Positions 4,840 through 63,530 of a stretch of DNA of 64,000 bases are shown here, one piece after another. The notes beneath the pieces were generated by a model that was not told the DNA's origin, did no database searches, and was given only the letters and a program-made list of their open reading frames with translations. Position numbers and translations under genes: made by a program. The stretch spans positions 661,438 through 725,437 of the forward strand of contig JBEKRQ010000001.1 of NCBI GenBank assembly GCA_049517655.1, given 5' to 3'. Source of the DNA: Verrucomicrobiota bacterium (GTDB lineage Bacteria; Verrucomicrobiota; Verrucomicrobiia; Limisphaerales; UBA11358). Within the stretch, counting starts at the first letter, position 1. Every line of letters starts with the position of its first letter.

Positions 4840-6356
4840 CCCGTAATGCTTCCCCGATAAATTCTTCCAGCTGAATCTAATTTAGTTTTCCACTTGCCTC
4901 CTTCGCAGGATAGATAGCTTATTTGCGCAAAGGTTACGTAAACTTCTGCTAACTGATCGATGTACAACCATACAGGAAGGCCACAAGTAGTACTATTGTT
5001 GCATTGCACCCTTATTCCAACTGTGTCATCGTGAAGATAACACGTATCCCACAAAAGAATCAAATTTTTGTAGGAGCCCCCTGTGAAAGACAAACTCACA
5101 CTCATATTAATGCTTCCACCTAGGAAATAATTACCAACAGAATCAGTCCGAGTCATCTGATGATAAGCCGGTTTTTCACAGCAAGGGTCACCATCCCCAG
5201 GTAGCTTATAAAACCACTTGCCCGGAGTGTGACGTGTTACAGTGTGACCATTCACGGGTTGCGTCTCTGTTGTCGTCAAGAACGGCCCTGGCGTACCCCA
5301 GTTATAAAGACCCAACGGATCGACTTTCGTAATAGGATTGTTGCGTGCAAACGCATAAAGATTAAAACCGCCTTGTTCTCCCAACGGGTCTCTATCTGGC
5401 CATCTACCTGTAATCGGGTCATAATAACGATAACCATAATAATAGAGACCAGTTTCCCAGTCGTAGAATTTCGTGGAGAAGAGAAACGGATTTAGTTTGG
5501 CAAGCGGGCCGGTCGCGCGTATGGGTTCGCCAAAGGGGCCATACTCATACTGCGCTGCAATCGTCCCATTGGCCGCGTTTACAAGTGCCACTACATTTCC
5601 ATTGCCATCAAAACAATAGAAATACGTCCCCGCATTCGTCTCCGAATAGACGGTCATGGAAATGAGTCCACCCACTCCGCCTGCACCCTGTATACTCCCA
5701 CTTAAATCTGTGCCCCACTGGAAAGAAGTCAGGAGTGAGGAGTCAGGATTCAGAATAGCTACAAGATTCCATCCGTCATATACAAACTTGTTGGTGGACT
5801 GTGGAACATAAGTCGAGCCATTCCATGTCGAAACAATCTTTTGAATTCTCCGACCCTGCCAATCGTAGGTAAAATCCACCTTCTGTTTGGCGGCATCCGG
5901 CACAGTGGAAATGGATGCAATCGAAACGAGATAATTCTCTCCATTCCAAATGTTCGTCCATAATCCGCCGCTGGTTTGATTACCGTCTAAATCATAGGTG
6001 AATGAATTCGTTTGTGGCGCAATTAACAGATTCCCATTCGCAGCAGAACTTCCGTTCATATTGACTTGCACATTTTGCCAGACCGGATTGTTTTGATTGG
6101 TCACTGACAATTCCGCCCGGAAGTATTCAATCCTGCGATAAGGATTAATGCCATTAACAGTCAACGTATTGGTTGCAATCGCCACACCAATTACATCCAC
6201 GTAATTGGGAACTGTTCTTTGCGTGTATTGATTTAGGTTGTTGGCTATATAACTGGAGCTTCGTTGGTTGCCACCATTTTGATCTCCACCCGACAACGTT
6301 TGTGTTCGGTTCCCGATATTATCAAAGCTGTAACCGAATTCCTGCCCGGCAATCAT
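4827..6356 (-). CDS. Orphan Rhs module 4 (509 aa) with a 159-aa tip of unknown type
   Basis: Starts MIAGQEFGYSFDNIGNRT (inside the YD-repeat region). Core reads WGTDLSGSIQGAGGVGGLISMT...FDGNGN...YYGYRYYDPITGRWPDRDP...NLYAFARNNPITKVDPLGL, followed by the tip at 4827-5306. Confidence 0.8.
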   Translation of the reverse strand: MIAGQEFGYSFDNIGNRTQTLSGGDQNGGNQRSSSYIANNLNQYTQRTVPNYVDVIGVAIATNTLTVNGINPYRRIEYFRAELSVTNQNNPVWQNVQVNMNGSSAANGNLLIAPQTNSFTYDLDGNQTSGGLWTNIWNGENYLVSIASISTVPDAAKQKVDFTYDWQGRRIQKIVSTWNGSTYVPQSTNKFVYDGWNLVAILNPDSSLLTSFQWGTDLSGSIQGAGGVGGLISMTVYSETNAGTYFYCFDGNGNVVALVNAANGTIAAQYEYGPFGEPIRATGPLAKLNPFLFSTKFYDWETGLYYYGYRYYDPITGRWPDRDPLGEQGGFNLYAFARNNPITKVDPLGLYNWGTPGPFLTTTETQPVNGHTVTRHTPGKWFYKLPGDGDPCCEKPAYHQMTRTDSVGNYFLGGSINMSVSLSFTGGSYKNLILLWDTCYLHDDTVGIRVQCNNSTTCGLPVWLYIDQLAEVYVTFAQISYLSCEGGKWKTKLDSAGRIYRGSITGWKW

Positions 6357-6750: not shown

Positions 6751-9700
6751 TCATGGGTCTTGGGCTTGACTGGGCCCTGACGGATTCAATGTAGGATTCG
6801 AGTTAAAAGAATCATATGCCCATGTAAACGAAACACAGCCAAGAGCCTTGCCGTCACTACAATACGCACAATCCTTAAGTTTAAATGCAGTTCCGAATAG
6901 CCACCCACTCCAAGGGGCATCAGTGATTTCTAAATTCCCACTGCCAGTCTGTTCGTCGAATGTCGGATCACTCCACCATGGAACGTAGTTATGTTTAAAT
7001 GAAATTGTTTGCACTAGGTGAATGTTATTTTTGGCACATGTGCAACAGTTTTTATCAGGCACAAATCGAACACTAAAACCATCAACAGGTGTGCCCGGAG
7101 TTACACCACGCTTATCTGCATCTGACCCATAAATTGGCACCTGCTTTGGAGAAACCACGAAAAACCCGCATGCAAGAGCATATAAATCAATGTTTTTAAT
7201 GGGATCGTTGGCGATAAAACAATAAAGGTTCTTCTCTTGGTTGCGGTCAAAGCTTCGACGACTGCGATTCAGAGTTTGGAAGCCGATCTCATTGATGGGG
7301 TCGTGATTTGACCATGTGCCGGTGCTTGGCGTGTATTCACGATGCAGATACTTAATTCTTTGAGTCACATCATCTGCAAATTGAGTGCTGAAACGGATTG
7401 GATTCAATTTTCCAACTGCTCCAGTGATACGAATGGTTTGACCGAATGGGTCATACTCATAGTTTGCACTCGTGGTGCCATCAGCGGCATTGACCAAAGC
7501 AGAGACGTTTCCATTTCCATCGAACGCTGCGAAATGTGTGCCGTTAGTCTTGAAACTCACCGCCAATAATCCACCAACGCCACCCGCGCCTTGCATTGAG
7601 CCACTCAAGTCAAGTCCTCGCATGAATGACATTACCAAACCGTTCGTCTGGTCGAGAATCGCCAGCAACACTTTCCCATCCCACACAAACCGATTCGTGT
7701 ATTGCGGCACATAAGAACTTCCGTTCCAGCTTGAAACGATTCTTTGATTCCATCTTCCATCAGGCAGATAGCTCCACTCTTCTTTCATGCGCCCAGCCGA
7801 AGGAACATTCGTCAGGTTTTGAGTGGCAATCAAACGATTCTCTGCGTCCCAAGTATTTGTCCACAGTCCATCACTGGTTAAGTTGCCATCCGCGTCATAC
7901 ACGAACGCTTGAGGAGACTTTGCCAAAAGAACATTACCTGTCACACTCGTTTGCCCCGTTGCCGCTACGATGATGTTTGTCCAAAGTGCCAACGAACTAT
8001 TATCTACGCCCAGTTCCTTCCTGAAATATTCCACCTTCCGATATGCCGTCTGGCCATTCACCGTTACCGTGTTCGTGGCAAAGCTCACGCCTTTGATGTC
8101 CACATAACCCGGCACATCCCGGCTGGTGATTTGATTGAGTGTGTTGTTCGTATAGTTCGCCGTGCGCAAATAGCCGCCGTTCTGGTCTCCGCCGGCTTGG
8201 GTCTGTATGCGATTGCCGATATTGTCAAACGTGTAATCAAACTGCTGGCCAGCGACGGGTGTCCCGTCAGACCAATACTTATTGCCGCCGGTCACTTGGC
8301 CCAGCGAGTCGTATTGATAAATCCAGTAGGAACCGTCGGCCAGGGTGTCCTTGGTGCGCTGATTGGCGGGGTTGTAGTTGTAGGTGTGAGAGTCCAAAGT
8401 CCTCAGTCCACTGTCCAAAGTCGAAATTTGCGTGAGGCGATTCAGATTATCGTATGACTTGGTTGTGGTCATGCGAGTTGTGCCGCTCTGCTTAAAGGCA
8501 ATCTGGCCTACCAACGGCGAGTTGGCAAGATAGGAATAAGTCGCCGAGTCCAAAGTCCCAAGTCCAATGTCCAAAGTCGAAACGGTCTGGAGACGGGAGG
8601 CGGTGTCGTAGTCATACGAAGCAGAAGCAAGGAGCACGGATGAAGGACTAAGTAAAGCCAGATTCGTGCGGCGCAAATACGCGTCGTAATTGTTGGTCAC
8701 GGTAAGGCCATTCAAGGTGCCGCCGGAATACGATTCGCTTAAAAGCTGATTCGCTGAATTATATGTCAGGGACTCGGTGGAACTCGCCCCTCCGACTTGG
8801 ATGAGACGGCCCAAACGGTCGTAGGTGTTGGTGACGTTCGATGTTGCGCCGCCGGAATAAACAATTGTGGCCAAACCGCCAGCATTGTCATAAGCATAGG
8901 TGGTTGTGATTCCTCTCGCCCAAGTCCGCGATGCCAGTCGATTTGCCGATGTATTTACATAACCCAATTTACTGCTGTCCGGAAATGTTTTGTTCGTCAG
9001 GAAACCGCGATAACCGTCATAATTCCACGTCGTCACGCGCGCACCGCTGCCGCTGCTGAAATTGCTCCAGTTTGTCATGGTCTTTAATCGTCCGGCGTAA
9101 TCGTATCCGTAACCGACCGGATAGGTGCGCGAACCGTATTGCAAACCAAGCTCACCTGTGGGCAGATAAACGCTGTTGACGGTCATGTTATCGGGCTGCG
9201 TTACGCTGACAGCTTGTAGCATGTTGTTGTAAGTGGTGGTTGTGGTCTGGGACAATGGCGCGGTTACGCTCGTCACCAGATCGGCGTTATTAAAACCGTA
9301 AGTGGTCGTGCCATTACGAGCATCGGTGACGGTGTTTTGTCGGCCTTGCGGGTCGTAACCGTAGGTGGCACCGCCAATCGGGTTGCCGTTGGAGTCATAG
9401 CGTGTGGTGGAAATGGGCCGGCCATAGGAGTAGGCGCTGATGGTGTAGGAGCCGTCCGGGGCGGTGGTGATGGTTGAGCGGCTGTTGCCCGAATAACTGG
9501 TCTGGTTGGTGGTCGTCACCGGCGTGCCGGCGTCGCGATAAACGGTCTGCCAGTTGGTTAAGCCGTCGGTTGAGACACGGATTTCACTGATTAACGCGGA
9601 TTGATCCACGCCGTTTTGGTTCCAGACATAGGTGCGTGTGCGGCGGACATTGGCGTTGTTATTGGTGGTCACGTCGTTGGTGGTGCAGGTGATGCGGTCG

Positions 9701-18200: not shown

Positions 18201-20728
18201 TTGGTGCTGTAGGCATAAAGGGTTGAAACGTTGTCAGGATCAATCGTATTGGTGAGCTGGCCTTTTGAGTTGTAGAAGGACTGGCTGTAGTGATTATCAG
18301 CATAAAGTGTTTTGACGGTGCGGCCCGCCATATCGGTATAGGTCTTTGTCCATTCGGAAGTGAGGTTGCCATTGACATCGAGATTGGTTTCCACGGTGTA
18401 GGTCCAATAAGCGCCGGAATTATATTCCACGCCGTAGCTGTAGGCTTTTCCGTGCACGGCAATGCCAGTAACACTCTTGAGCGAGCCGTCGGCATAATAA
18501 GTGTCAATGCGCGTGCCGCCATTGGGATAAACGCTGGTGCGGATAGTTCCGCCCGTTGGGGCATTCGTCCGGCTGTAAGTGGTGACGCCGTCTAGGGCGT
18601 TGGTCTGTGCAATGAGTTCACCGGCCAGGTCATAGGATGACTGCCCAAGAATTACCGATGAGTCATCGGAGCCCACCCTGACAGATGCGAGGACATGACC
18701 GGCGGCGTCGAGGGCATTGGTGAAGGTGATGGGGTTGTTGCCGGTGCCATTGACATACCTTGCATAACCGATTTGGCGTTTGGCGGGGTCGTAGAGGTAT
18801 TGGGTGAACACGCCGTCGCGGTCAATGGTGTTGTCCAGCCCACAACAGCCGTATTGGGTCGTCTCGGTCGTGCCGTCGTTGTATTGAACCAGTGTGGGCC
18901 GGCCCAAATCATCCGTCTGGAGGGTTACTGCGGAGGACAGCAACAATCCAGAGGCGATGTCGTAGGTCGCGTTGGAGATCGAGTTGCCCCCCAAATCCAC
19001 CACGGTCACGGCCTTGGTGCCATCCACGACGTTGGTGCCCGTGGCATCGGGCACCCCCGACCAAACGGTGGTCGTCAAGCCGGTCGCATTGGTGGCATAC
19101 TGATAAACACTCACCGTGCCGTCGGGGTTTTTCGTCCAAGCGGGATAACTTTCAAAATTGCCATCGGTGAACGAAGTATTGACTGTGACGAGATTGTTCA
19201 ATGCGCCAATCACGGCGCCCGGTGTCTGGCACACGAAGTTGCTTACGCCTCCCGGAAAATCCACACGGTAGGAACGGGCTGTTTCCTGACCCAGCAAAGT
19301 CTCCACCGTTGTTGACTGCGCTGTGACACCGCTAGTGCCGGTAGTGTAACCATTAATTGTCACACGGCATTGGGATTCCGGAGCGCCCACAGGCGCATCC
19401 TTAAATTGTGCCACTGTCTTCACCCGGCGGGACCCGGAATCATACTGATAAAGCTCCCAATAGCCGGACGGCGTTGTGATTTGCTTCAATTGTCCGTAGT
19501 TGCCGCCATCCACGGCAGCGTTGGTGTAATAGCTCCATGTATTGGTCTGCGCTCCAAGCCCGTCCGGATTCACGATCCGTTGGATGAGATTCGTTTCGTC
19601 CCACGGAAATACCTGATACGTTTCGACCTGCTTAAAGGCCACAGTGTCATCTGCATTCAATACGACGTTTGTTTCGGTGAGGATCGTCTGGCTGCCATCC
19701 CAAAACTGCGACCGTGTTTCTTTGCGTAGTCCGTCACCGGTGATCAATTCCCAGTATTGTGCGTTCGCAACCCAAGTGTAATCATATTGATGATCACCCA
19801 GCTGGCCCGTGGTATTGATGCGCAATCGGTTATAGGTGTTGGTGGAAGCATCGGGATTTTGCACGGTGACTGCGTTAAAGGGCTGGCCGGTGGGCGGATA
19901 GAGACCGTTAATTTTATTCAGGCTGAAATTGGATGCCGTGTAGAAGTTAACCGAATAGCAGAAATCGTTGCTGACAATGACATCGGCAAGCAGTTGCGAA
20001 GTGCGTACCTGCCGCAACACGCCTGTGGCACCGTCATTGATCCGCTCGACGGATGCGCCTAAATATGCCTGAATGCCGTCAGGCTTGGCCAAAGACAAGC
20101 CCGGATAGTTGTCTTCGATGACCAGTTGCCCGGCATTTTGCTGATATGCATACTTGCCGAGTCCCATTCTGAAATGAAGGCTATTAAGACCGGCTTCTAC
20201 AGAACCAGCGGCGCAGCTATTACCACTGCAACCGCCGCATTTAGCCCGCCAAGTAATATAAACAGGGGGGCCACTAAACGGCCAGCCAATATGGTTTCCA
20301 CAACCATCGTCATCGGTTGCAGTGATCGTAACTTGCAGGCGTTTGCCATTGGGACAAATGGATATATCACTTGCTGGCAGTTTCTGATTAATAATTTGAT
20401 TCCCCCAGTGTTTACTTGGGCAGGAGAAACTCGGGCCTGTTGAGGAAACGCTTCCAATCGTGCCCTTGTCATCAAAAGAAGCACTGTTCACTATCACTTC
20501 ATAATTACCGGGAATAAGCGTGAATGGAAAATCGTCACTTTCCAAAGTTCGAGTGATGGTGGCACCGGCCCCCAGTCCGAGACTTCCCAACGACACCCAA
20601 TAACTGTATGACTTGGATTGTTCCACCCACTCAGTATTCAATGCAAATACCCGGCAACAGGCAAAGCAAACCAGAAACGCCACAGTTATCCGAACATTGT
20701 AATGTAAGAAATTATAAATTAGTTTCAT
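15254..20728 (-). CDS. Full-length Rhs/YD-repeat protein (1824 aa) with a Sec-type signal peptide and a 117-aa phospholipase A2-like C-terminal toxin tip
   Basis: GGAG lies 8 nt upstream of the ATG at 20728. N-terminus is MKLIYNFLHYNVRITVAFLVCFACCRVFA. There are dozens of YD repeats. Core reads WGLDLSGSMDGAGGVGGLL...YDGNGN...FAKNSPIDQIDPRGL. Tip (15254-15607) has NWCGSDWTGG, DNCCRKHDACF and CDDLLCDC, matching the WCGxG / CCxxHDxC / CDC pattern of bee-venom-type PLA2. No PAAR or VgrG-type N-terminus. Confidence 0.9.
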   Translation of the reverse strand: MKLIYNFLHYNVRITVAFLVCFACCRVFALNTEWVEQSKSYSYWVSLGSLGLGAGATITRTLESDDFPFTLIPGNYEVIVNSASFDDKGTIGSVSSTGPSFSCPSKHWGNQIINQKLPASDISICPNGKRLQVTITATDDDGCGNHIGWPFSGPPVYITWRAKCGGCSGNSCAAGSVEAGLNSLHFRMGLGKYAYQQNAGQLVIEDNYPGLSLAKPDGIQAYLGASVERINDGATGVLRQVRTSQLLADVIVSNDFCYSVNFYTASNFSLNKINGLYPPTGQPFNAVTVQNPDASTNTYNRLRINTTGQLGDHQYDYTWVANAQYWELITGDGLRKETRSQFWDGSQTILTETNVVLNADDTVAFKQVETYQVFPWDETNLIQRIVNPDGLGAQTNTWSYYTNAAVDGGNYGQLKQITTPSGYWELYQYDSGSRRVKTVAQFKDAPVGAPESQCRVTINGYTTGTSGVTAQSTTVETLLGQETARSYRVDFPGGVSNFVCQTPGAVIGALNNLVTVNTSFTDGNFESYPAWTKNPDGTVSVYQYATNATGLTTTVWSGVPDATGTNVVDGTKAVTVVDLGGNSISNATYDIASGLLLSSAVTLQTDDLGRPTLVQYNDGTTETTQYGCCGLDNTIDRDGVFTQYLYDPAKRQIGYARYVNGTGNNPITFTNALDAAGHVLASVRVGSDDSSVILGQSSYDLAGELIAQTNALDGVTTYSRTNAPTGGTIRTSVYPNGGTRIDTYYADGSLKSVTGIAVHGKAYSYGVEYNSGAYWTYTVETNLDVNGNLTSEWTKTYTDMAGRTVKTLYADNHYSQSFYNSKGQLTNTIDPDNVSTLYAYSTKGELAYTAIDMDRNGTIDFGGTDRITWTTNDVTTVNGVNVRRSRTYVWDQNGVDQSVLISEIRVSTDDLTNWQTVYRDAGTPVTATSQTSYSGNSRSTITTAPDGSYTISAYSYGRLTQVQRFDSSSVLLASSSYGYDPQGRQNTVTDARNGTTTYGFNNADLVTSVAAPLSQTTTTLYDNMMRPYSVIQPDGTTVNSVYLLTGELGLQYGSRTYPVGYGYDYAGRLQTMTNWSSYPNTGARLTTWNYNGQRGWLTSKAYDGGAAGPGYTYTSAGRLASRTWARGITTTYGYDNAGGLATIVYSGGTTSNVTNTYDRLGRLIQVGGASSTESLTYNSANQLLSETVNGVTVTNNYDSYLRRTNLSLLNPSSVLLASASYAYDTASRLQTVSTLDIGLGTLDSATYSYLANSPLVGQITFQQSGTTRMTTTKSYDNLNRLTQISTLDVGLRTLDSHTYNYNNANQRTRTTLADGSYWIYNYDSLGQVTSGKKYWSDGTPVAGQQFEYNFDNIGNRTQTKAGGDQGGAGLRPASYSVNTLNQITSRDYPGMNDVIGVAIATNAVTVNGQIAYRKVEYFQSAMGTNNSSAPAWLGVTVASGNNTNTGNIFITKTPETFGYDADGNLTNDGRWMLTWDAENRLTKAESLTNTPTASERKVTWEYDGKGRRIRQTTYDGSSGSYLVTEDLKFVSDGWRHIAELNATNNALVRSYTWGLDLSGSMDGAGGVGGLLMMNSAVNGEHFYAYDGNGNVAALVKASDGTVSANYEYETFGKPIRATGLMAKENPFRFSTKRMNDTTDLILYEMRPYSPSFGRFLGKDPLGDEAFLREQTKGKGWRAQKHLVEHGNLPSYLFAKNSPIDQIDPRGLKQIWGNWCGSDWTGGQNIASTDYDWENDPSPAVKDGLDNCCRKHDACFANWDLDNHKKLAGKVDTDRCDDLLCDCARANANLSNERANAEIQCAMCSRRNAEDGKGRFCCKITIISF
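16843..17034 (-). repeat. Two imperfect heptamer tracts, (AGTCCAA)5-like on the + strand, inside the main Rhs, encoding STLDVGLRTLDS and STLDIGLGTLDS
   Basis: 16843-16878 reads agtccaa agtccga agtccaa cgtccaa agtcgaa. 16999-17034 reads agtccaa agtccca agtccaa tgtccaa agtcgaa. Homologous tracts lie at 4193-4228, 8391-8426, 8547-8583 and 14261-14287. Confidence 0.7.
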
Positions 20729-47866: not shown

Positions 47867-49297
47867 TTAATGCCGCGCCAGCAACACGCCAAGCTTCAAT
47901 AATTTCCGCACATTGGCATCCGATTTTGCCTCGGCGTAAATTCGCAGCACCGGCTCCGTGCCCGAACCGCGCAACATCAGCCATGAAGAATCTTCCGCGA
48001 TAAATTTCACACCATCGAATGTCTTCATGCCAGACAACGGTGAACGCAACAGTTTTTTCGGCGGATTCTTTTTCAAGAAATCCATCAGCGCACCGCGTTT
48101 TCCTAAAGGGAAATGCATGTCAGTTCTTCCGTAGCGATGCGGACCGAATTGTTTTTCCAATTTCATCAACAGCTTGTTGACGGATTTGCGTTCGGTCGCG
48201 AGCAATTCAAGCAACATCAACCCGGCCAGGATGCCGTCGCGTTCGGGGATGTGACCGGAAAAACCGATGCCGCCGCTTTCTTCCGCGCCTAACAGCACGT
48301 TGCCCTTGAGCATCTCGGCGCAAATATACTTAAAGCCGACGCCGGTTTCGACGAGCGGCAGCCCATAGGCTGCACACATTTTGTCCACCATCGAAGTCGT
48401 CGTCAGCGCCTTCACCACACGTCCCCTGCCCTTGCGATTTACAATGAAATGATGCAGCAGTAGGCAAATGATCTGGTGTGTTGTGAGCGCTTTGCCATGA
48501 CCGTCCATGCCGCCAATGCGGTCGGCATCGCCGTCGGTCACGAGGCAAAAGTCGTGCGGATGTTTTTCAAGAAATTTTTGGCTGGGGCCGTAATTGTCTT
48601 TTATCGGCTCGGGATTGATGCCGCCGAACAAAACATCGTGCCGGGCATTGAGTGTCGTGACTTTGCAAGTCGTGCCCGCGAGCAATTTTTCAAAGCAGCC
48701 GGCGCCGACGCCGAAAAGCGCGTCGTGCGCGAAACGCAGTTTTGATTTCGTGATGAGCTTGAAGTCCACGAGTTTTTTGAGCGCGGCAAAATGCGCCGGA
48801 CGGACGTCGTGGACGGAAATTTGTCCGGTGCGAATAGCATCATCGAGTTTCACCGTGCGAACCGGATTGCAGTCGAGAAAACTTTCGACTGCTTTGCAGG
48901 TTTCAGGATCGCTTGAGCCGCCATAGTATGACTTGAGTTTGAACCCATTGAAGATTGGCGGGTTATGGCTGGCTGTAATCATCACGCCGCCGACGGCATG
49001 CAGATTTTTAACGGCGAACGAAACCGACGGTGTCGGCGTCGGCTCCGGCGTGAGAATGACTTGAAAATCGTTCCCGGCGAGAACTTCGGCAGTGCAGCGG
49101 GCGAATTGGTCGGAGAAAAACCGGCGATCGTAGCCGACGATAACCTTGAGTTCCCGCCCGAAAACTTCTGACTTCCGACTTCCGACTTCAGACTTCCAGA
49201 AGTCCGCCGTCGCCTGCGCGATGCGCGCGACATTGGCAAACGTGAAATCCTCCGCGATGACCGCCCGCCAGCCGTCCGTGCCGAATTTGATGTTCAT
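47867..49297 (-). CDS. Alpha-D-phosphohexomutase (phosphomannomutase/phosphoglucomutase family)
   Basis: MNIKFGTDGWRA..., TASHNPP (active-site Ser loop), TDGDADR (Mg site), GAEESGG. Confidence 0.85.
   Translation of the reverse strand: MNIKFGTDGWRAVIAEDFTFANVARIAQATADFWKSEVGSRKSEVFGRELKVIVGYDRRFFSDQFARCTAEVLAGNDFQVILTPEPTPTPSVSFAVKNLHAVGGVMITASHNPPIFNGFKLKSYYGGSSDPETCKAVESFLDCNPVRTVKLDDAIRTGQISVHDVRPAHFAALKKLVDFKLITKSKLRFAHDALFGVGAGCFEKLLAGTTCKVTTLNARHDVLFGGINPEPIKDNYGPSQKFLEKHPHDFCLVTDGDADRIGGMDGHGKALTTHQIICLLLHHFIVNRKGRGRVVKALTTTSMVDKMCAAYGLPLVETGVGFKYICAEMLKGNVLLGAEESGGIGFSGHIPERDGILAGLMLLELLATERKSVNKLLMKLEKQFGPHRYGRTDMHFPLGKRGALMDFLKKNPPKKLLRSPLSGMKTFDGVKFIAEDSSWLMLRGSGTEPVLRIYAEAKSDANVRKLLKLGVLLARH
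49165..49204. repeat. Heptamer tract (CTTCYGA)x5 ending in a short palindrome, in frame inside the phosphohexomutase gene
   Basis: cttctga cttccga cttccga cttcaga cttccag aagtc. Encodes ...DFWKSEVGSRKSEVFG... on the minus strand. Confidence 0.7.
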
Positions 49298-61600: not shown

Positions 61601-62350
61601 ATGCACCGTTTTTACTTGCCGCCCGAACGCTGTGCCGATGCCATGCTCCAGCTCGATGGACGCGAGGCGCATCACGCGCTGCACGTTCTGCGTTTGAAGC
61701 GCGGCGAACTCATCACCGTTTTGGACGGCGTCGGAAATGAATTCCTTTGCGCGGTTAAAAATAGTTCGCGCGATGCCGTCACGCTTTCCGTGTCGCTGAA
61801 AAATTTCACGCCGCCCCTACCCTACTCTATCACGTTGCTGCAAGCCGTGCCCAAGGGAAAAATCATCGAGTCCATCATTCAAAAGGCCGTTGAACTCGGC
61901 GCGCGGCGAATCGTGCCGCTGCTGACCGAGCATGTTGTGACACATCTTGGCGAGAAGGACAGGGCGAACAAACGTGACAAGTGGCAGCAGGTGGCCGTTG
62001 AAACCATCAAGCAATGTGGCGCAGCCTGGCTGCCGAAAATTGAAATACCTGTGACACCCGCGCAATTCCTCACACGCAAAGAAAAATTTGATTTGTCACT
62101 CGTCGGTTCGCTGCAAAGTGACCGATGCCATCCGCGCGAATGTTTGGGCGAGTTTCAGGCAAAGCATGGGTGCCTGCCGCAAAGCGTTGGCGTTTGGATT
62201 GGGCCGGAAGGTGATTTCACACTCGATGAATTGAAGGCGATTCAAGCCAGCGGCGCACTGCCAATTTCGCTGGGACGTCTCGTGTTGCGCGTCGAGACAG
62301 CGGCGATTTATTGTCTTTCGATTCTCAACTACGAATTGCAAGCGGCCTGA
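61601..62350 (+). CDS. rsmE: 16S rRNA (uracil1498-N3)-methyltransferase
   Basis: MHRFYLPPE...LDGREAHHALHVLRLKRGE...LLQAVPKG...GPEGDFT..E. Confidence 0.85.
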   Translation: MHRFYLPPERCADAMLQLDGREAHHALHVLRLKRGELITVLDGVGNEFLCAVKNSSRDAVTLSVSLKNFTPPLPYSITLLQAVPKGKIIESIIQKAVELGARRIVPLLTEHVVTHLGEKDRANKRDKWQQVAVETIKQCGAAWLPKIEIPVTPAQFLTRKEKFDLSLVGSLQSDRCHPRECLGEFQAKHGCLPQSVGVWIGPEGDFTLDELKAIQASGALPISLGRLVLRVETAAIYCLSILNYELQAA

Positions 62351-63530
62351 GCTGAACCAAAACACGGAAGGCGCGGCCCAGATGTTCCGGATGCGTGAGG
62401 GTTTGAAATTGGCGGGCTTGGGCTGACGTCCATCCGTCTTCGCTTCCGCCTCCGTCAGACTTCGGCGAGACAAGGCGCTTCGACGCGACAAGTTCGCCAA
62501 AGGATTTGTCCTTGAGTGTTTTTTCCAAAATACGCGTCAGGAATTGCGGTTGCGTTGGAAAACTTTCAGTCGTCAGTCCGGCGGATTCACCGGCAGTTTG
62601 AATCGCCGAAAAATTGACGTGTGCGGTGAGGTCTTGTTCGCCGACGTTGGCCAGAATGTCGTCGCTGGCGCGATGGCGAAAATAGGCGCGGAGCGTGCCG
62701 CGCGTGCGGCTGGGCGAAAACAATTCGTCGGCGGTCAAACCGTAATCAATTGTCATCAAGCGTCCGCGTTCCAAAAGGCTCGCGGCTTCGCGCCACCAGT
62801 TTTCGGCGGCGGGACAGGTTTCGATGGTGTAACCGTCAGGAAGCACAGCCAGCAAGGCAGCTGGCAGATGGCGGAGGACAGACGGCAGATTCAGTTCTGA
62901 CTTCTGACTTCTGACTTCTGGATTCTGGATTCTCGCCCAGACGAATTTTCCGCCTTCGATGGCAACGCCCCACTCAAACCAAAGTTTTTTTGCGGCGTCC
63001 CAGCCAAAGCGGCGAACGGGCATGGCATCAAGAAGTTCGTTTGAGAAAATAATTCCAGACAGTTTTGAATTTCGAGTTTTGAGTTTCAAGTCTTCAATGC
63101 CGGTGAACCAGCAAACACGCGGAGCAAACTCCGCCAGTTTTTCTTTTTGCCATTTCTGCCGGCGCGCCGAAGGTTCGATGATGGCATATTGGATTTGCTC
63201 GAAAAGTTTTGGGCGACGAGATTGCAGCCCGTTTAAAATGTCTTTGGCCAATTGGCCGTCATGCGCGCCAGCCTCGACAATTCTGATTTCTGATTTCTGA
63301 CTTCTGACTTCTGTCCCCAGCCATTCGGCGAATTGAAAGGCGAGCAGTTGTCCGAAAAGTTCGCCGACGCTGACGTTTGTGTAGAAATCGCCGCGCCGTC
63401 CAGGGGTGTCTTTTTTTGTTTCGTAGTATCCATAAACAGGACAATAAAGGGCGAGTTCCATGAAACGCGCGAAGGACAAAATGCCACGCGCGGCCATTTC
63501 GCAGCGAATAATTTCAACAAGCGTTTTCAT
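62325..63530 (-). CDS. SAM-dependent methyltransferase, DUF185 (MidA/NDUFAF7-like) family, carrying three heptamer-tract insertions
   Basis: FARFMELALYCPVYGYYE...RGDFYTNVSVGELFG...VEAGAHDGQLA...FSNELLDAMPV. Confidence 0.75.
   Translation of the reverse strand: MKTLVEIIRCEMAARGILSFARFMELALYCPVYGYYETKKDTPGRRGDFYTNVSVGELFGQLLAFQFAEWLGTEVRSQKSEIRIVEAGAHDGQLAKDILNGLQSRRPKLFEQIQYAIIEPSARRQKWQKEKLAEFAPRVCWFTGIEDLKLKTRNSKLSGIIFSNELLDAMPVRRFGWDAAKKLWFEWGVAIEGGKFVWARIQNPEVRSQKSELNLPSVLRHLPAALLAVLPDGYTIETCPAAENWWREAASLLERGRLMTIDYGLTADELFSPSRTRGTLRAYFRHRASDDILANVGEQDLTAHVNFSAIQTAGESAGLTTESFPTQPQFLTRILEKTLKDKSFGELVASKRLVSPKSDGGGSEDGWTSAQARQFQTLTHPEHLGRAFRVLVQLRPLAIRS
62895..62934. repeat. Heptamer tract (TTCTGAC)3(TTCTGGA)2 in frame in the DUF185 gene
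   Basis: ttctgac ttctgac ttctgac ttctgga ttctgga ttctc. Encodes IQNPEVRSQKSEL on the minus strand. Confidence 0.75.
63062..63098. repeat. Degenerate heptamer tract (TTYGAGT-like x5) in frame in the DUF185 gene
   Basis: tttgaat ttcgagt tttgagt ttcaagt cttcaat. Encodes EDLKLKTRNSKLS. Confidence 0.5.
63281..63315. repeat. Heptamer tract (TTCTGAY)5 in frame in the DUF185 gene
   Basis: ttctgat ttctgat ttctgac ttctgac ttctgtc. Encodes GTEVRSQKSEIRI immediately before the VEAGAHDG SAM-binding motif. Confidence 0.75.

Follow-up and report, generated by a model that had tools for sequence, protein, structure and literature searches.

The window (the whole 64,000-nucleotide stretch that was analysed) carries on its minus strand a gene for a MidA/DUF185 SAM-dependent methyltransferase, whose product matches the Pfam family PF02636 (Methyltransf_28/MidA) with an E-value of 2.2e-57 (a score of 194.8 bits, the curated cut-off being 23.3). 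More than 5000 homologues were found, the top ones coming from MAGs of Verrucomicrobiota/Limisphaerales, and homologues in the PDB are 4f3n, 1zkd and NDUFAF7 (5ztz). The glycine-rich loop of motif I, VEAGAHDG, showed no variation across 39 MidA orthologues, and the identical 401-aa product (P0121) is encoded on 66 contigs across NCBI, JGI, ENA and Logan.

We analysed the repeats in this gene with Tandem Repeats Finder and a periodicity scan. These confirmed the three in-frame heptamer tracts that a first-pass annotation had reported in the DUF185 methyltransferase ORF, and a degenerate fourth period-7 array, missed by that annotation, was detected next to the third (Table 1). The same gene contains a non-heptamer repeat segment (site 4), and further heptamer arrays lie in a phosphoglucomutase/phosphomannomutase (PGM) gene and in RHS-type ORFs.

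Table 1. Repeat features of the window, with the gene that houses every MidA tract. Tandem Repeats Finder (TRF) calls give unit, copies and matches.
Feature	Coordinates	Strand	Unit	Peptide	TRF call
Heptamer array, RHS/YD-like ORF	5724..5756	-	AGGAGTC-type on + strand	ILNPDSSLLTS (opposite-orientation reading)	
Heptamer array, RHS-repeat ORF	8546..8582	-	TTGGACT-type (sense)	VSTLDIGLGTLDS	
Heptamer array, second RHS-repeat ORF	16841..16878	-	TTGGACT-type		
Heptamer array, duplicated RHS segment	16998..17034	-	identical to array at 8546-8582		
Heptamer array, PGM gene	49161..49199	-	(GAAGTCN)5	WKSEVGSRKSEVF	
MidA/DUF185 (PF02636) SAM-dependent methyltransferase ORF	62325..63530	-		401 aa	
Site 4 of MidA, non-heptamer in-frame repeat segment, LVASKRLVSPKSDGGGSEDG	62430..62495	-			
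Array 3b of MidA, decayed, adjoins 3a	62856..62890	-	ATCTGCC-type	LPSVLRHLPAA	62856-62890, GGCAGAT x5.0, 71%
Array 3a of MidA (site 3)	62895..62934	-	sense (AATCCAG)2(AAGTCAG)3	QNPEVRSQKSE	62895-62920, TTCTGAC x3.7, 100%; 62916-62933, TTCTGGA x2.6, 100%
Array 2 of MidA (site 2), degenerate	63061..63098	-	sense AAACTCA AAACTCG AAATTCA AAACTG	KLKTRNSKL	63061-63086, period 7 x3.7, 78%
Array 1 of MidA (site 1)	63281..63315	-	sense GAAGTCA GAAGTCA GAAATCA GAAATCA GAA	EVRSQKSEIRI	63281-63313, TTCTGAC x4.7, 96%

The peptides first ascribed to the tracts, and the position of one of them before the SAM-binding motif, match the translation of the ORF: TEVRSQKSEIRIV abuts EAGAHDG on its N-terminal side, and DLKLKTRNSKLS and NPEVRSQKSELN are the other tract peptides. 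All tracts lie inside the 401-aa ORF, and the view that they would be translated between conserved family motifs was supported. Array 1 spans a loop into strand beta-1, immediately ahead of motif I, while array 2, the weakest tract in the window (16/21 positions equal at lag 7), precedes the FSNELLDAMP block. An AlphaFold2 model built from the 39-sequence alignment was poor (mean pLDDT 59) and was therefore used solely for placing the arrays, which it puts at probable junctions of secondary-structure elements; array 1 would run from a helix end through a loop into the first part of a strand (low confidence). The PGM array sits in the loop ahead of the conserved VVGYDRR strand. Variants of this array occupy the site in 116 of 120 PGM homologues, the 4 without it being 8 aa shorter, and Val and Ile covary between its units (VV 52, II 22, VI 18, IV 5).

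With the threshold set at 17 or more matches among 21 positions at lag 7, the periodicity scan detected 7 period-7 arrays in the window, while each of 20 dinucleotide-type shuffles gave none; among the other periods from 3 to 15 the window showed only the harmonic at 14. Related Limisphaerales loci (1.48 Mb) contained 107 period-7 arrays, and none of the other periods from 4 to 12 had more than 8. Outside MidA, array density was 8.2 per 100 kb in relatives with 70-90% MidA identity, and no array was found in 257 kb of relatives with 40-50% MidA identity, in keeping with the earlier proposal that the tracts are lineage-specific. Per base, arrays are about 22 times as frequent in MidA itself as in its flanks. 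The 107 arrays reduce to 59 canonical units, which recur across MidA, PGM, RsmE and RHS genes and intergenic DNA. Both the 7-nt period and the intergenic copies of the arrays uphold the claim that these are heptamer repeats at the DNA level rather than codon-level low complexity. The arrays are a genome-wide feature of one Limisphaerales clade (Verrucomicrobiota subdivision 3) from soil.

A comparison of orthologues at 55-88% identity showed near-perfect arrays of near-equal length at MidA sites 1-3, built from other units (GAAGTCA, CAGTCCA, TTGCGGA and CTTCAAC among others). At least one MidA array was present in 32 of 88 genomes, and all three in 10. The array at site 1, 30-33 nt in most orthologues, reads (GAAGTCA)4 in L002, (ACAGTCC)4 in L009, (TTGCGGA)4 in L016 and (CTTCAAC)4 in L006. 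Site 2 holds perfect arrays in relatives, namely (AAATCGG)4 in L006 and (AAACTCG)3 in L008, and also in L018 and L042; the position of the decayed array 3b is occupied by a perfect (CCATCTT)4 in L014, L015, L019 and L086. Variant units cluster side by side, in the order AABB both in the window and in L038 and ABBA in L010, and the site peptides are unrelated even in close relatives (EVRSQKSEVR, QVHSPQSTVH, LRIADCGLR, LNLQPSTFNL). The identity of an array is decoupled from the divergence of its gene: 41 of 42 array positions were identical between orthologues sharing 68.6% nucleotide identity, and 12 of 39 between orthologues sharing 85.4%. The refuting condition named in the first-pass annotation, homologous peptides at these positions in orthologues from distant taxa, gave a mixed picture: related orthologues do have repeats at the sites, but with unrelated peptides, and distant orthologues have non-repetitive loops at the array positions of MidA.

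The first-pass annotation had likened the tracts to in-frame insertions. Site 1 is 15 residues long in the window and 11-13 in array-free orthologues, and site 2 is 20 residues long against 14-18, a net gain summarised as 2-4 aa over orthologues whose loops are non-repetitive. The PDB homologue 4f3n has 5 aa fewer at site 1. Orthologues without an array are no shorter at site 3, where several of those with an array have fewer residues than those without. These lengths do not fit simple insertion; for the most part the arrays replace loop sequence, with a near-absence of net insertion.

Single-linkage clustering of units (at most 1 mismatch, over rotations and strands) percolated even with random 7-mers, and we therefore substituted exact-unit counts and permutation tests. 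One unit occurred at different MidA sites in 4 of 41 within-genome pairs, two of these being inverted, compared with 1% for pairs from different genomes (p = 0.0004). Shared units (at most 1 mismatch) amounted to 15.8% within a genome and 6.0% between genomes (permutation p < 0.001). Local slippage alone does not predict this sharing across sites and within genomes; an extra process is needed, which could be array-to-array exchange or a genome-specific preference for certain units.

Repeat-number polymorphism that shifts the frame was found in natural populations at array 3. Two metagenome contigs (L092 and L093) have one CAGAAGT unit (7 nt) deleted and are otherwise identical over 1319 nt; this loss truncates the protein, whose 210-aa product (P0122) ends in ...EVRSQN and a stop, and switches the gene off. 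The expectation that gain or loss of a unit shifts the frame was thereby met by a natural allele. A contig with the -7 allele also carries a 1-nt frameshift in one of the neighbouring genes, and may represent a decaying lineage or a lower-quality assembly. The orthologue in L002, a close relative, has exactly 3 units (21 nt) fewer at site 3 with the frame kept, which shows that the claim of a 5-unit arrangement as the only one to keep the ORF open was too strict, steps of 21 nt also being in frame. A difference of 7 aa between the homologues P0008 and P0010 at site 1 likewise speaks for slippage. Array 3a is the locus of both variants. A second, unrelated OFF allele (L094) arises from A5 to A4. 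The ON allele was counted on 66 contigs and the OFF allele on 2, and one MidA homologue (P0124) terminates exactly at array 3. No frameshift alleles of the PGM array were found, the short members of its cluster being contig-end fragments or unrelated. A programmed frameshift site was also considered and dropped, as the units do not match the X XXY YYZ pattern and all orthologues continue downstream in the zero frame.

Relatives carry, in addition, small dispersed elements of 21-36 nt inside their heptamer arrays. A 21-nt core, CTCCGATAAATCGCGAGCA(GG), is placed exactly between two complete units in many arrays, and metagenomes gave at least 120 exact matches to it, in 74 unique contexts; it was not found in the window even at 3 mismatches, nor were nested elements found in the window's arrays. 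A 30-nt mini-element occurs within arrays of relatives and at site 4 of the window, where the segment consists of this dispersed element with a nested second, diverged copy. Among MidA orthologues of at least 90% identity the segment is whole, half or missing, and copies related to the element occur at other loci (L004, L143, L138 and L163). BLAST of site-specific inserts among the first loci returned orthologous copies only, and in the later, larger locus set a few copies of the 30-nt element proved non-orthologous. Rfam searches of the nested-element loci at the gathering threshold (for L148 also at a relaxed E-value) gave only tRNAs and one chance match. GC-rich, REP-like in-frame inserts were seen at site 3 of MidA orthologues (LAPRSGERAGARG, GEGVKPRGATPLYGAG) and in orthologues of PGM. 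Elhai et al. in 2008 reportedly described small dispersed repeats (SDR) of Nostoc that are embedded in tandem heptamers. The elements of our relatives are likewise nested precisely in heptamer arrays, and the 30-nt element at site 4 can be set beside them, but the sequences and the phylum are different and the elements here often lie in frame within genes. Precise insertion of SDR5 into HIP1 is cited in one report (PMC4390886).

Taken together, we consider it probable that the tracts are heptanucleotide microsatellites driven by slippage, of the STRR or long-simple-sequence-repeat type, which evolve in concert in tolerant loops and form frameshift hot spots. In MidA the arrays fill four positions that code for loops and are flanked by conserved blocks. 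Within 21 nt a heptamer unit is read in all three frames, so that any stop-free unit encodes a mostly polar peptide of 7-residue period, which surface linkers could tolerate. Arrays would change by whole-unit slippage, a change of one unit giving a frameshift and a null allele, and a change of three units staying in frame. Recurrent loss and gain of units, under selection for an open frame and a near-constant loop length, would homogenise the units, so that, by concerted evolution, the repeat stays at its site in the long term although the sequence of its unit changes. Slippage as the mechanism, and the off/on route to homogenisation, are what we infer; passage through frameshifted intermediates is plausible for MidA, in which null alleles were seen, and less so for PGM, in which none were found. 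The slippage model does not account for the choice of 7 nt over other periods. Most likely the arrays arise as a by-product of mutation, without a required function and presumably neutral, and their practical effect is that the host gene becomes a frameshift hot spot.

The arrays could instead be selected contingency switches that turn MidA and other genes on and off reversibly and at high frequency, which we regard as unlikely. A unit length that is no multiple of 3, a natural OFF allele that lacks one unit in an otherwise identical sequence in two assemblies, the array enrichment of MidA over its flanks and the perfection of arrays over long divergence all suit such adaptive phase variation. 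However, at 3-5 units the tracts are short, classical contingency loci being usually longer, and they reside in genes for cytoplasmic enzymes of the housekeeping type (MidA, PGM) instead of surface or restriction-modification genes; the ON allele dominates, and the unrelated OFF allele of L094 suggests relaxed constraint and not a dedicated switch. There is a slim chance that pre-formed arrays or units spread by copying from locus to locus, in either orientation, through ectopic gene conversion or a small system of mobile elements that operates in a 7-nt register and is possibly tied to the 21-nt (3 x 7) element nested between units. Such templating would explain the sharing of units beyond chance, inversions included, the decoupling of array identity from gene divergence, the restricted vocabulary of units recurring across genes and intergenic DNA, and the occurrence of the 21-nt core between units and of the 30-nt element in arrays and at site 4. 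Against it, no transposase or other enzyme is linked to the arrays, nested elements are not in the window's arrays, and the conserved length at each site and the blending of arrays into flanking codons fit evolution in situ; the sharing could also reflect selection for stop-free, polar-coding heptamers or recombination between strains. We hold equally doubtful the bolder form of this reading, by which an active process in the 7-nt register copies preferred units between loci in both orientations and is mechanistically tied to the 21-nt and 30-nt elements lying precisely between units, the arrays then not being passive microsatellites. If true, this micro-mobile system would overwrite, in frame, stretches of ordinary genes that encode loops, and would give rise to alleles that can be switched.

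The comparison first drawn with Rickettsia palindromic elements (RPEs), mobile palindromes some 100-150 nt long, would make the tracts in-frame insertions of such an element, and this is very improbable. The segments are indeed in frame, lineage-specific and placed between conserved motifs, as RPEs are extra segments tolerated in conserved proteins, and orthologues do carry the REP-like in-frame inserts at site 3 and in PGM. However, the hairpin potential of the three tracts was not above that of shuffled sequences (fold z-scores of -0.44, -1.07 and -0.07) and no local inverted repeats were found in them; they are short tandem repeats of 30-45 nt that mostly replace existing loop sequence, with a net gain of just 2-4 aa, their units differ wholly between orthologues, and they are not copies of one inserted element. 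Selection at the protein level for a repeated linker peptide, as in ordinary low-complexity coding sequence, has similarly little to recommend it: the peptides are polar and lie in loops, and (GAAGTCA)n, encoding EVRSQKSEVR, is conserved in several distant orthologues, but the period of 7 nt is neither 3 nor a codon multiple, synonymous variation between units is absent, one site bears unrelated peptides in close relatives, and the arrays also occur in intergenic DNA. Repeats can break assemblers, and the end of P0124 exactly at array 3 might be read in this way, but an assembly or sequencing artefact is barely credible; it is excluded for the tracts by the identical ON allele, seen on 66 contigs across four sources, a read is longer than any of the arrays, and arrays occupy orthologous sites in dozens of independent MAGs.

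The three reported tracts are head-to-tail heptanucleotide repeats of at least three copies (3.7-5 copies at 78-100%), and the likeness to the STRR heptamers of cyanobacteria noted in the first-pass annotation was borne out, both consisting of tandem 7-nt units with few copies per array, in several dispersed unit families and restricted to a lineage. STRR, or short tandemly repeated repetitive sequences, were reportedly described by Mazel et al. in 1990 from Calothrix, Anabaena and Nostoc. The STRR1-3 units of heterocystous cyanobacteria are CCCCAGT, TTGGTCA and CAACAGT. None of our canonical units equals these, the nearest being CAGTCCA, one mismatch from an STRR1 rotation; here the host belongs to Verrucomicrobiota and the units are GAAGTCA, AAGTCCA, AATCCGC and others. 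STRR are described mainly as intergenic, whereas many of the present arrays lie in conserved genes, in frame, at orthologous positions and with turnover of units. Calothrix heptanucleotides are also mentioned in PMC4692102.

Over-representation of heptanucleotides in bacteria, and the proposal of polymerase slippage, are established according to two reports (PMC4679880, PMC4692102). The long simple sequence repeats of prokaryotes resemble our arrays in the dominance of period 7 and in the proposed slippage (PMC4679880). The survey by Mrazek et al. (2007, cited through PMC4679880) reportedly showed that the repeats most likely to occur in coding regions have unit lengths divisible by three, whereas the heptamers here persist in coding DNA because their lengths keep the frame. 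The TAACTGA direct repeats found in marine Beggiatoaceae, cyanobacteria and Bacteroidetes likewise form heptamer arrays of 2-6 copies, often just upstream of start codons, with one orientation translatable and stops in the other (PMC4679880), but they have a single favoured unit and are mostly intergenic, unlike the many units and the four arrays in one enzyme gene described here. The G-quadruplex-forming repeats GGGAATC and GGGGAYT of Xanthomonas and Nostoc are simple heptameric repeats too, with about 4 copies preferred and a position near ORF ends (PMC4692102); the present units, which are translated, do not belong to the G-tract repeats. The phase-variable simple sequence repeats in coding regions that form contingency loci, for example in Haemophilus and Neisseria (PMC3315296, PMC2651432), share with our arrays a unit not divisible by 3 and an inactivating frameshift on loss of one unit, as in L092 and L093; our tracts differ in being short and in lying in genes for housekeeping enzymes. 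Our literature search found no paper joining heptanucleotide repeats and Verrucomicrobia, and heptamers go unmentioned in a 2025 survey of short tandem repeats across the tree of life.

The excess of 7-nt repeats, and the origin and persistence of STRR-type arrays, have been a question standing since the 1990s. The Limisphaerales clade is an unusually informative natural experiment in this respect, with array-bearing loop sites in conserved single-copy genes across dozens of genomes. Since unit turnover, length conservation and null or in-frame variants can be read directly from alignments, models of slippage, ectopic conversion and mobile elements are testable with existing metagenome reads. 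In the annotation of MAGs, the arrays yield frameshifted 'pseudogenes' and split gene calls, and in the proteins themselves they add lineage-specific linkers beside catalytic motifs.

Tandem Repeats Finder recovered all three of the in-frame heptamer tracts that the first-pass annotation had placed in a DUF185 methyltransferase gene. They lie within a minus-strand ORF of 401 aa (62325..63530), which matched Pfam PF02636 (Methyltransf_28, MidA/DUF185 family) with E = 2e-57 and has solved MidA/NDUFAF7-type structures among its homologues. Translation reproduced the encoded peptides as that annotation had described them, with tract 1 immediately ahead of VEAGAHDG. The 3' end of the MidA gene overlaps that of a convergent RsmE-like 16S rRNA methyltransferase ORF (61601-62350) by 26 nt (62325-62350), and a C-terminal tail, PLAIRS / PPAVRS, is present in some orthologues only.

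Period-7 arrays and associated elements in the window and in loci from relatives or metagenomes (L numbers); the last column gives the Tandem Repeats Finder percentage
Feature	Locus	Position	Strand	Context	%
TTCTGAC x3.7	window	62895-62920	-	MidA gene	100
TTCTGGA x2.6	window	62916-62933	-	MidA gene	100
Period-7 array x3.7	window	63061-63086	-	MidA gene	78
TTCTGAC x4.7	window	63281-63313	-	MidA gene	96
Fourth period-7 array x5.0, decayed	window	62856-62890		beside 62895-62920 tract	71
(GAAGTCN)5, WKSEVGSRKSEVF	window	49161-49199	-	inside PGM gene	
Heptamer array	window	5724-5756	-	RHS/YD-repeat ORF	
Heptamer array	window	8546-8582	-	RHS/YD-repeat ORF	
Heptamer array	window	16841-16878	-	RHS/YD-repeat ORF	
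Heptamer array	window	16998-17034	-	RHS/YD-repeat ORF	
(GAAGTCA)4	L002			MidA site 1	
(ACAGTCC)4	L009, L007			MidA site 1	
(TTGCGGA)4	L016			MidA site 1	
(CTTCAAC)4	L006			MidA site 1	
Mixed GAAGCCG / GAAATCC	L008, L010			MidA site 1	
AAACTCR, AAATCGG, AAATCCG, AATCCGC	orthologues			MidA site 2	
AAGTCAG, AATTCGC, CCTTCAG, AATCCGC, CCATCTT	orthologues			MidA site 3	
Inverted same-unit pair	L016	10215-10256 / 10620-10664		MidA gene	
Inverted same-unit pair	L031	10210-10251 / 10443-10480		MidA gene	
Start-adjacent array	L002	3691-3728		intergenic, 0-2 nt from annotated start codon	
Start-adjacent array	L007	994-1031		as L002	
Start-adjacent array	L010	960-996		as L002	
Start-adjacent array	L008	5478-5520		as L002	
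Array	L006	755-792		within called PHP gene; start possibly mis-called	
Inverted pair	L006	18933-18973 / 19001-19041		intergenic	
Inverted pair	L008	5478-5520 / 5537-5572		intergenic	
30-nt element, related copy	L004	10236-10279			
30-nt element, related copy	L143	392-433			
30-nt element, related copy	L138	10393-10422			
30-nt element, related copy	L163	1288-1308			
30-nt element, related copy	L009	11024-11052			

Alignment of 39 orthologous proteins (68-89% identity) showed that the three tract sites (sites 1 to 3) and a fourth are hypervariable indels separating invariant blocks. At the DNA level, near-perfect heptamer arrays occupied the same sites with differing units; site 1, bordered by ...TGGCTGGAA on one side and ATTGTCGAGGC... 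on the other, held 30-33 nt in every relative tabulated. At least one MidA array was found in 32 of 88 genomes, and all three in 10. Orthologues below about 50% identity are array-free, with ordinary, non-repetitive loops of 11-13 residues at site 1 (15 in the window), 14-18 at site 2 (20 in the window) and 20-28 at site 3 (18-31 in array-bearing genes); the Burkholderia structure 4f3n has five residues fewer at site 1. Comparison with orthologues, proposed in the first-pass annotation as a check, thus marks the arrays as lineage-specific, yet mostly replacing pre-existing loop-coding sequence and not inserted into it. An AlphaFold2 model places them, at low confidence, at junctions of helix end, loop and strand start, or in a disordered loop. 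The array in the phosphoglucomutase/phosphomannomutase (PGM) gene encodes KSE[V/I]xxxKSE[V/I]F variants in 116 of 120 homologues, back-translating to AAGTCNG, AAGTCCA, AAATCCG or AAATCGG; the segment is missing from the other four, which are 8 residues shorter.

With a threshold of at least 17/21 matches, a lag-identity scan of the 64-kb window detected seven arrays of period 7; among the other periods from 3 to 15 only the harmonic 14 appeared, and 20 shuffled windows yielded no array. All those outside MidA lay within long ORFs. The four RHS/YD arrays are spread over three ORFs; those at 8546 and 16998 are identical, flanking peptide included, indicating that this RHS segment was recently duplicated or converted. 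At 5724 the reading orientation is reversed, and the TGA expected in a perfect array has been abolished by a point change.

The host belongs to the Verrucomicrobiota, and the named matches nearest to it are peat and soil MAGs of Limisphaerales and Pedosphaera. In nine syntenic loci of relatives, 7 was the sole enriched period, and arrays outside MidA were mostly intergenic, often adjoining a start codon; one in L009 reached 12 copies. A GTTGAGN x5 array 5' of a PHP-domain gene was kept, imperfections included, in four genomes with differing MidA arrays; it is a possible regulatory or 5'-UTR element. Inverted intergenic pairs in L006 and L008 could form long, terminator-like hairpins. Across 80 loci from species-representative genomes (1.27 Mb) we counted 69 period-7 arrays as against at most 8 for any other period, and 107 in 1.48 Mb when the window and the first loci were added. 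Array density follows relatedness to the window genome: outside MidA it was 8.2 per 100 kb where MidA was 70-90% identical to that of the window, 5.5 at 60-70% and about 2-3 at 50-60%, with none in 257 kb at 40-50%. Arrays per MidA gene fell from 2.07 in the closest group to 0 in the most distant, and these densities identify MidA as a hot spot, with about 22 times the array density of its flanks.

How such repeats sit in frame follows from their period: 21 nt of a heptamer array covers all three reading frames, so any stop-free unit gives one peptide of 7-residue period, whatever the phase. The reverse complement of GAAGTCA contains TGA, leaving such units a single usable orientation. A change of one or two units, as the first-pass annotation had argued, shifts the frame, and a natural instance bears this out. 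Clustering at 90% identity grouped the window protein with truncated members from long contigs, and in two MEGAHIT contigs, each from a different ENA analysis (L092 and L093), array 3 is without exactly one CAGAAGT unit, the gene being otherwise identical to that of the window across 1319 nt; the frame then meets a TGA, and the product, of 210 aa, ends in ...EVRSQN*. The intact allele was present in 66 contigs. In a third contig (L094:2495-3699) another kind of null mutation, A5 to A4, splits MidA, and in L092 a neighbouring T2SSE-family ATPase gene (655-1844) is split by a 1-nt frameshift, T3 to T2. L092 may come from a lineage in decay or from a poorer assembly. Two explanations fit the inactivating changes in L094 and L092: relaxed selection with gene decay, or problems of assembly quality. 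Despite this caveat for L092, the exact loss of one unit, seen twice, is the signature that slippage would leave. In-frame steps also occur: L002 (88% identical) has exactly 21 nt, or three units, missing from array 3, and 7 residues separate two homologous proteins (P0008 and P0010) at site 1. Among PGM homologues, a search for frameshift alleles found none.

Variant units adjoin one another within arrays (AABB in the window and L038, ABBA in L010, CDDA in L008), and the two repeats of the PGM peptide covary at their Val/Ile position (VV 52, II 22, VI 18, IV 5). These patterns, along with an array length that stays constant, agree with a process in which units would be repeatedly lost and gained, the outcome being filtered for an open frame and a loop of tolerable length. 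For MidA, frameshifted intermediates can evidently survive in nature.

Simple local slippage does not account for all the observations. An identical canonical unit was found at two MidA sites in 4 of 41 within-genome site pairs as against 13 of 1263 between genomes (random 7-mer expectation 0.00085; permutation p = 0.0004), and in two of the four within-gene cases the arrays were mutually inverted. Over all arrays, units were shared at one mismatch or fewer in 15.8% of same-genome pairs and 6.0% of pairs between genomes (p < 0.001). Array identity is also decoupled from gene divergence: in L002 and L019, whose nucleotide sequences are 68.6% identical (58.6% at third positions of conserved codons), the site-1 arrays match at 41/42, whereas L006 and L009 are 85.4% identical with site-1 arrays matching at only 12/39. 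In clusters at 90% identity or above, the entire site 3 was sometimes exchanged for another array type. Taken together, unit sharing, decoupling and swaps require an additional process that couples arrays across sites and genomes; candidates would be exchange from one array to another, recombination across lineages, or a preference of each genome for certain units. The inverted same-unit arrays within MidA of L016 and L031, for example (TTGCGGA)4 versus (AATCCGC)4, are spaced about 250-400 nt apart and form perfect inverted repeats of ~30 nt within a single mRNA.

Some arrays harbored smaller elements. The sequence AACTCCGATAAATCGCGAGCA[G/C]GCG was found within the MidA site-3 array of L007 (10633-10683) and the PGM array of L095 (codons ~42-49). 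Its exact 19-nt core had at least 120 metagenome matches in 74 unique contexts, and a 21-nt form, CTCCGATAAATCGCGAGCA(GG/CG), followed through L007, L095 and L096-L175, lies precisely between two complete units in many arrays (e.g. ...CGCCCAA, core, CGTCCAA...). Outside arrays this core is flanked by variable complementary arms, with a helix of at least 6 bp in 20% of contexts versus 4.6% with mismatched flanks; a longer subfamily extends by ...CGCGACGAAAGTCGGTGTCC with a GAAA-loop hairpin. The 21-nt core had no Rfam family match and was absent from the window. The window MidA gene carries a non-heptamer in-frame 60-nt segment, LVASKRLVSPKSDGGGSEDG (62430-62495, minus strand), comprising two nested copies, the second diverged, of an element of about 30 nt of the form CTTG[G/T]CGCGNCGAAGCGAAGCGRAGACGG (CTTGTCGCGTCGAAGCG...AAGACGGA), for which no hairpin was found. 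In orthologues at least 90% identical the segment is full, half or missing, with short direct repeats at the deletion edges, and two of the related copies elsewhere lie inside heptamer arrays. These nested elements recall the small dispersed repeats that reportedly occur inside tandem heptamers in Nostoc. Precise insertion of SDR5 in Nostoc is reported by Elhai et al. (2008), as cited in PMC4390886. GC-rich REP-like in-frame inserts were also observed at MidA site 3 of L086 (10631-10714; LAPRSGERAGARG, with nested GEGVKPRGATPLYGAG) and in the PGM homologue P0363 (GSAGVSPASFARAGGTPALP).

The first-pass annotation had likened the tracts both to cyanobacterial heptamer repeats (STRRs) and to in-frame Rickettsia palindromic elements (RPEs). 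The former likeness holds: the window tracts share the defining features of the heptamer class, to which STRRs, Beggiatoaceae TAACTGA and Xanthomonas GGGAATC belong. The latter does not, as the tracts have no palindrome, do not contain a conserved inserted element and add little net length; the REP-like inserts of L086 and P0363 are the closer counterpart of RPEs. Heptanucleotide repeats are described as over-represented in bacteria, with polymerase slippage proposed (Mrazek et al., 2007, as cited in PMC4679880; PMC4692102). The TAACTGA repeats lie mostly just upstream of start codons, with one orientation translatable (PMC4679880), and the Xanthomonas repeats are G-rich (PMC4692102). With contingency loci the MidA tracts have in common the first defining feature, frame-shifting copy-number polymorphism in nature. 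Our literature search yielded no account of heptamer repeats in Verrucomicrobia, and in the literature found, four in-frame arrays in one conserved enzyme gene, arrays persisting at orthologous loop sites despite complete unit turnover, and units shared at genome level are apparently undescribed. The tracts are probably slippage-driven heptamer microsatellites that evolve in concert in tolerant loops and act as frameshift hot spots. As a clean system for comparative work, they bear on a long-standing question: why bacteria make heptamer repeats, and by what route.
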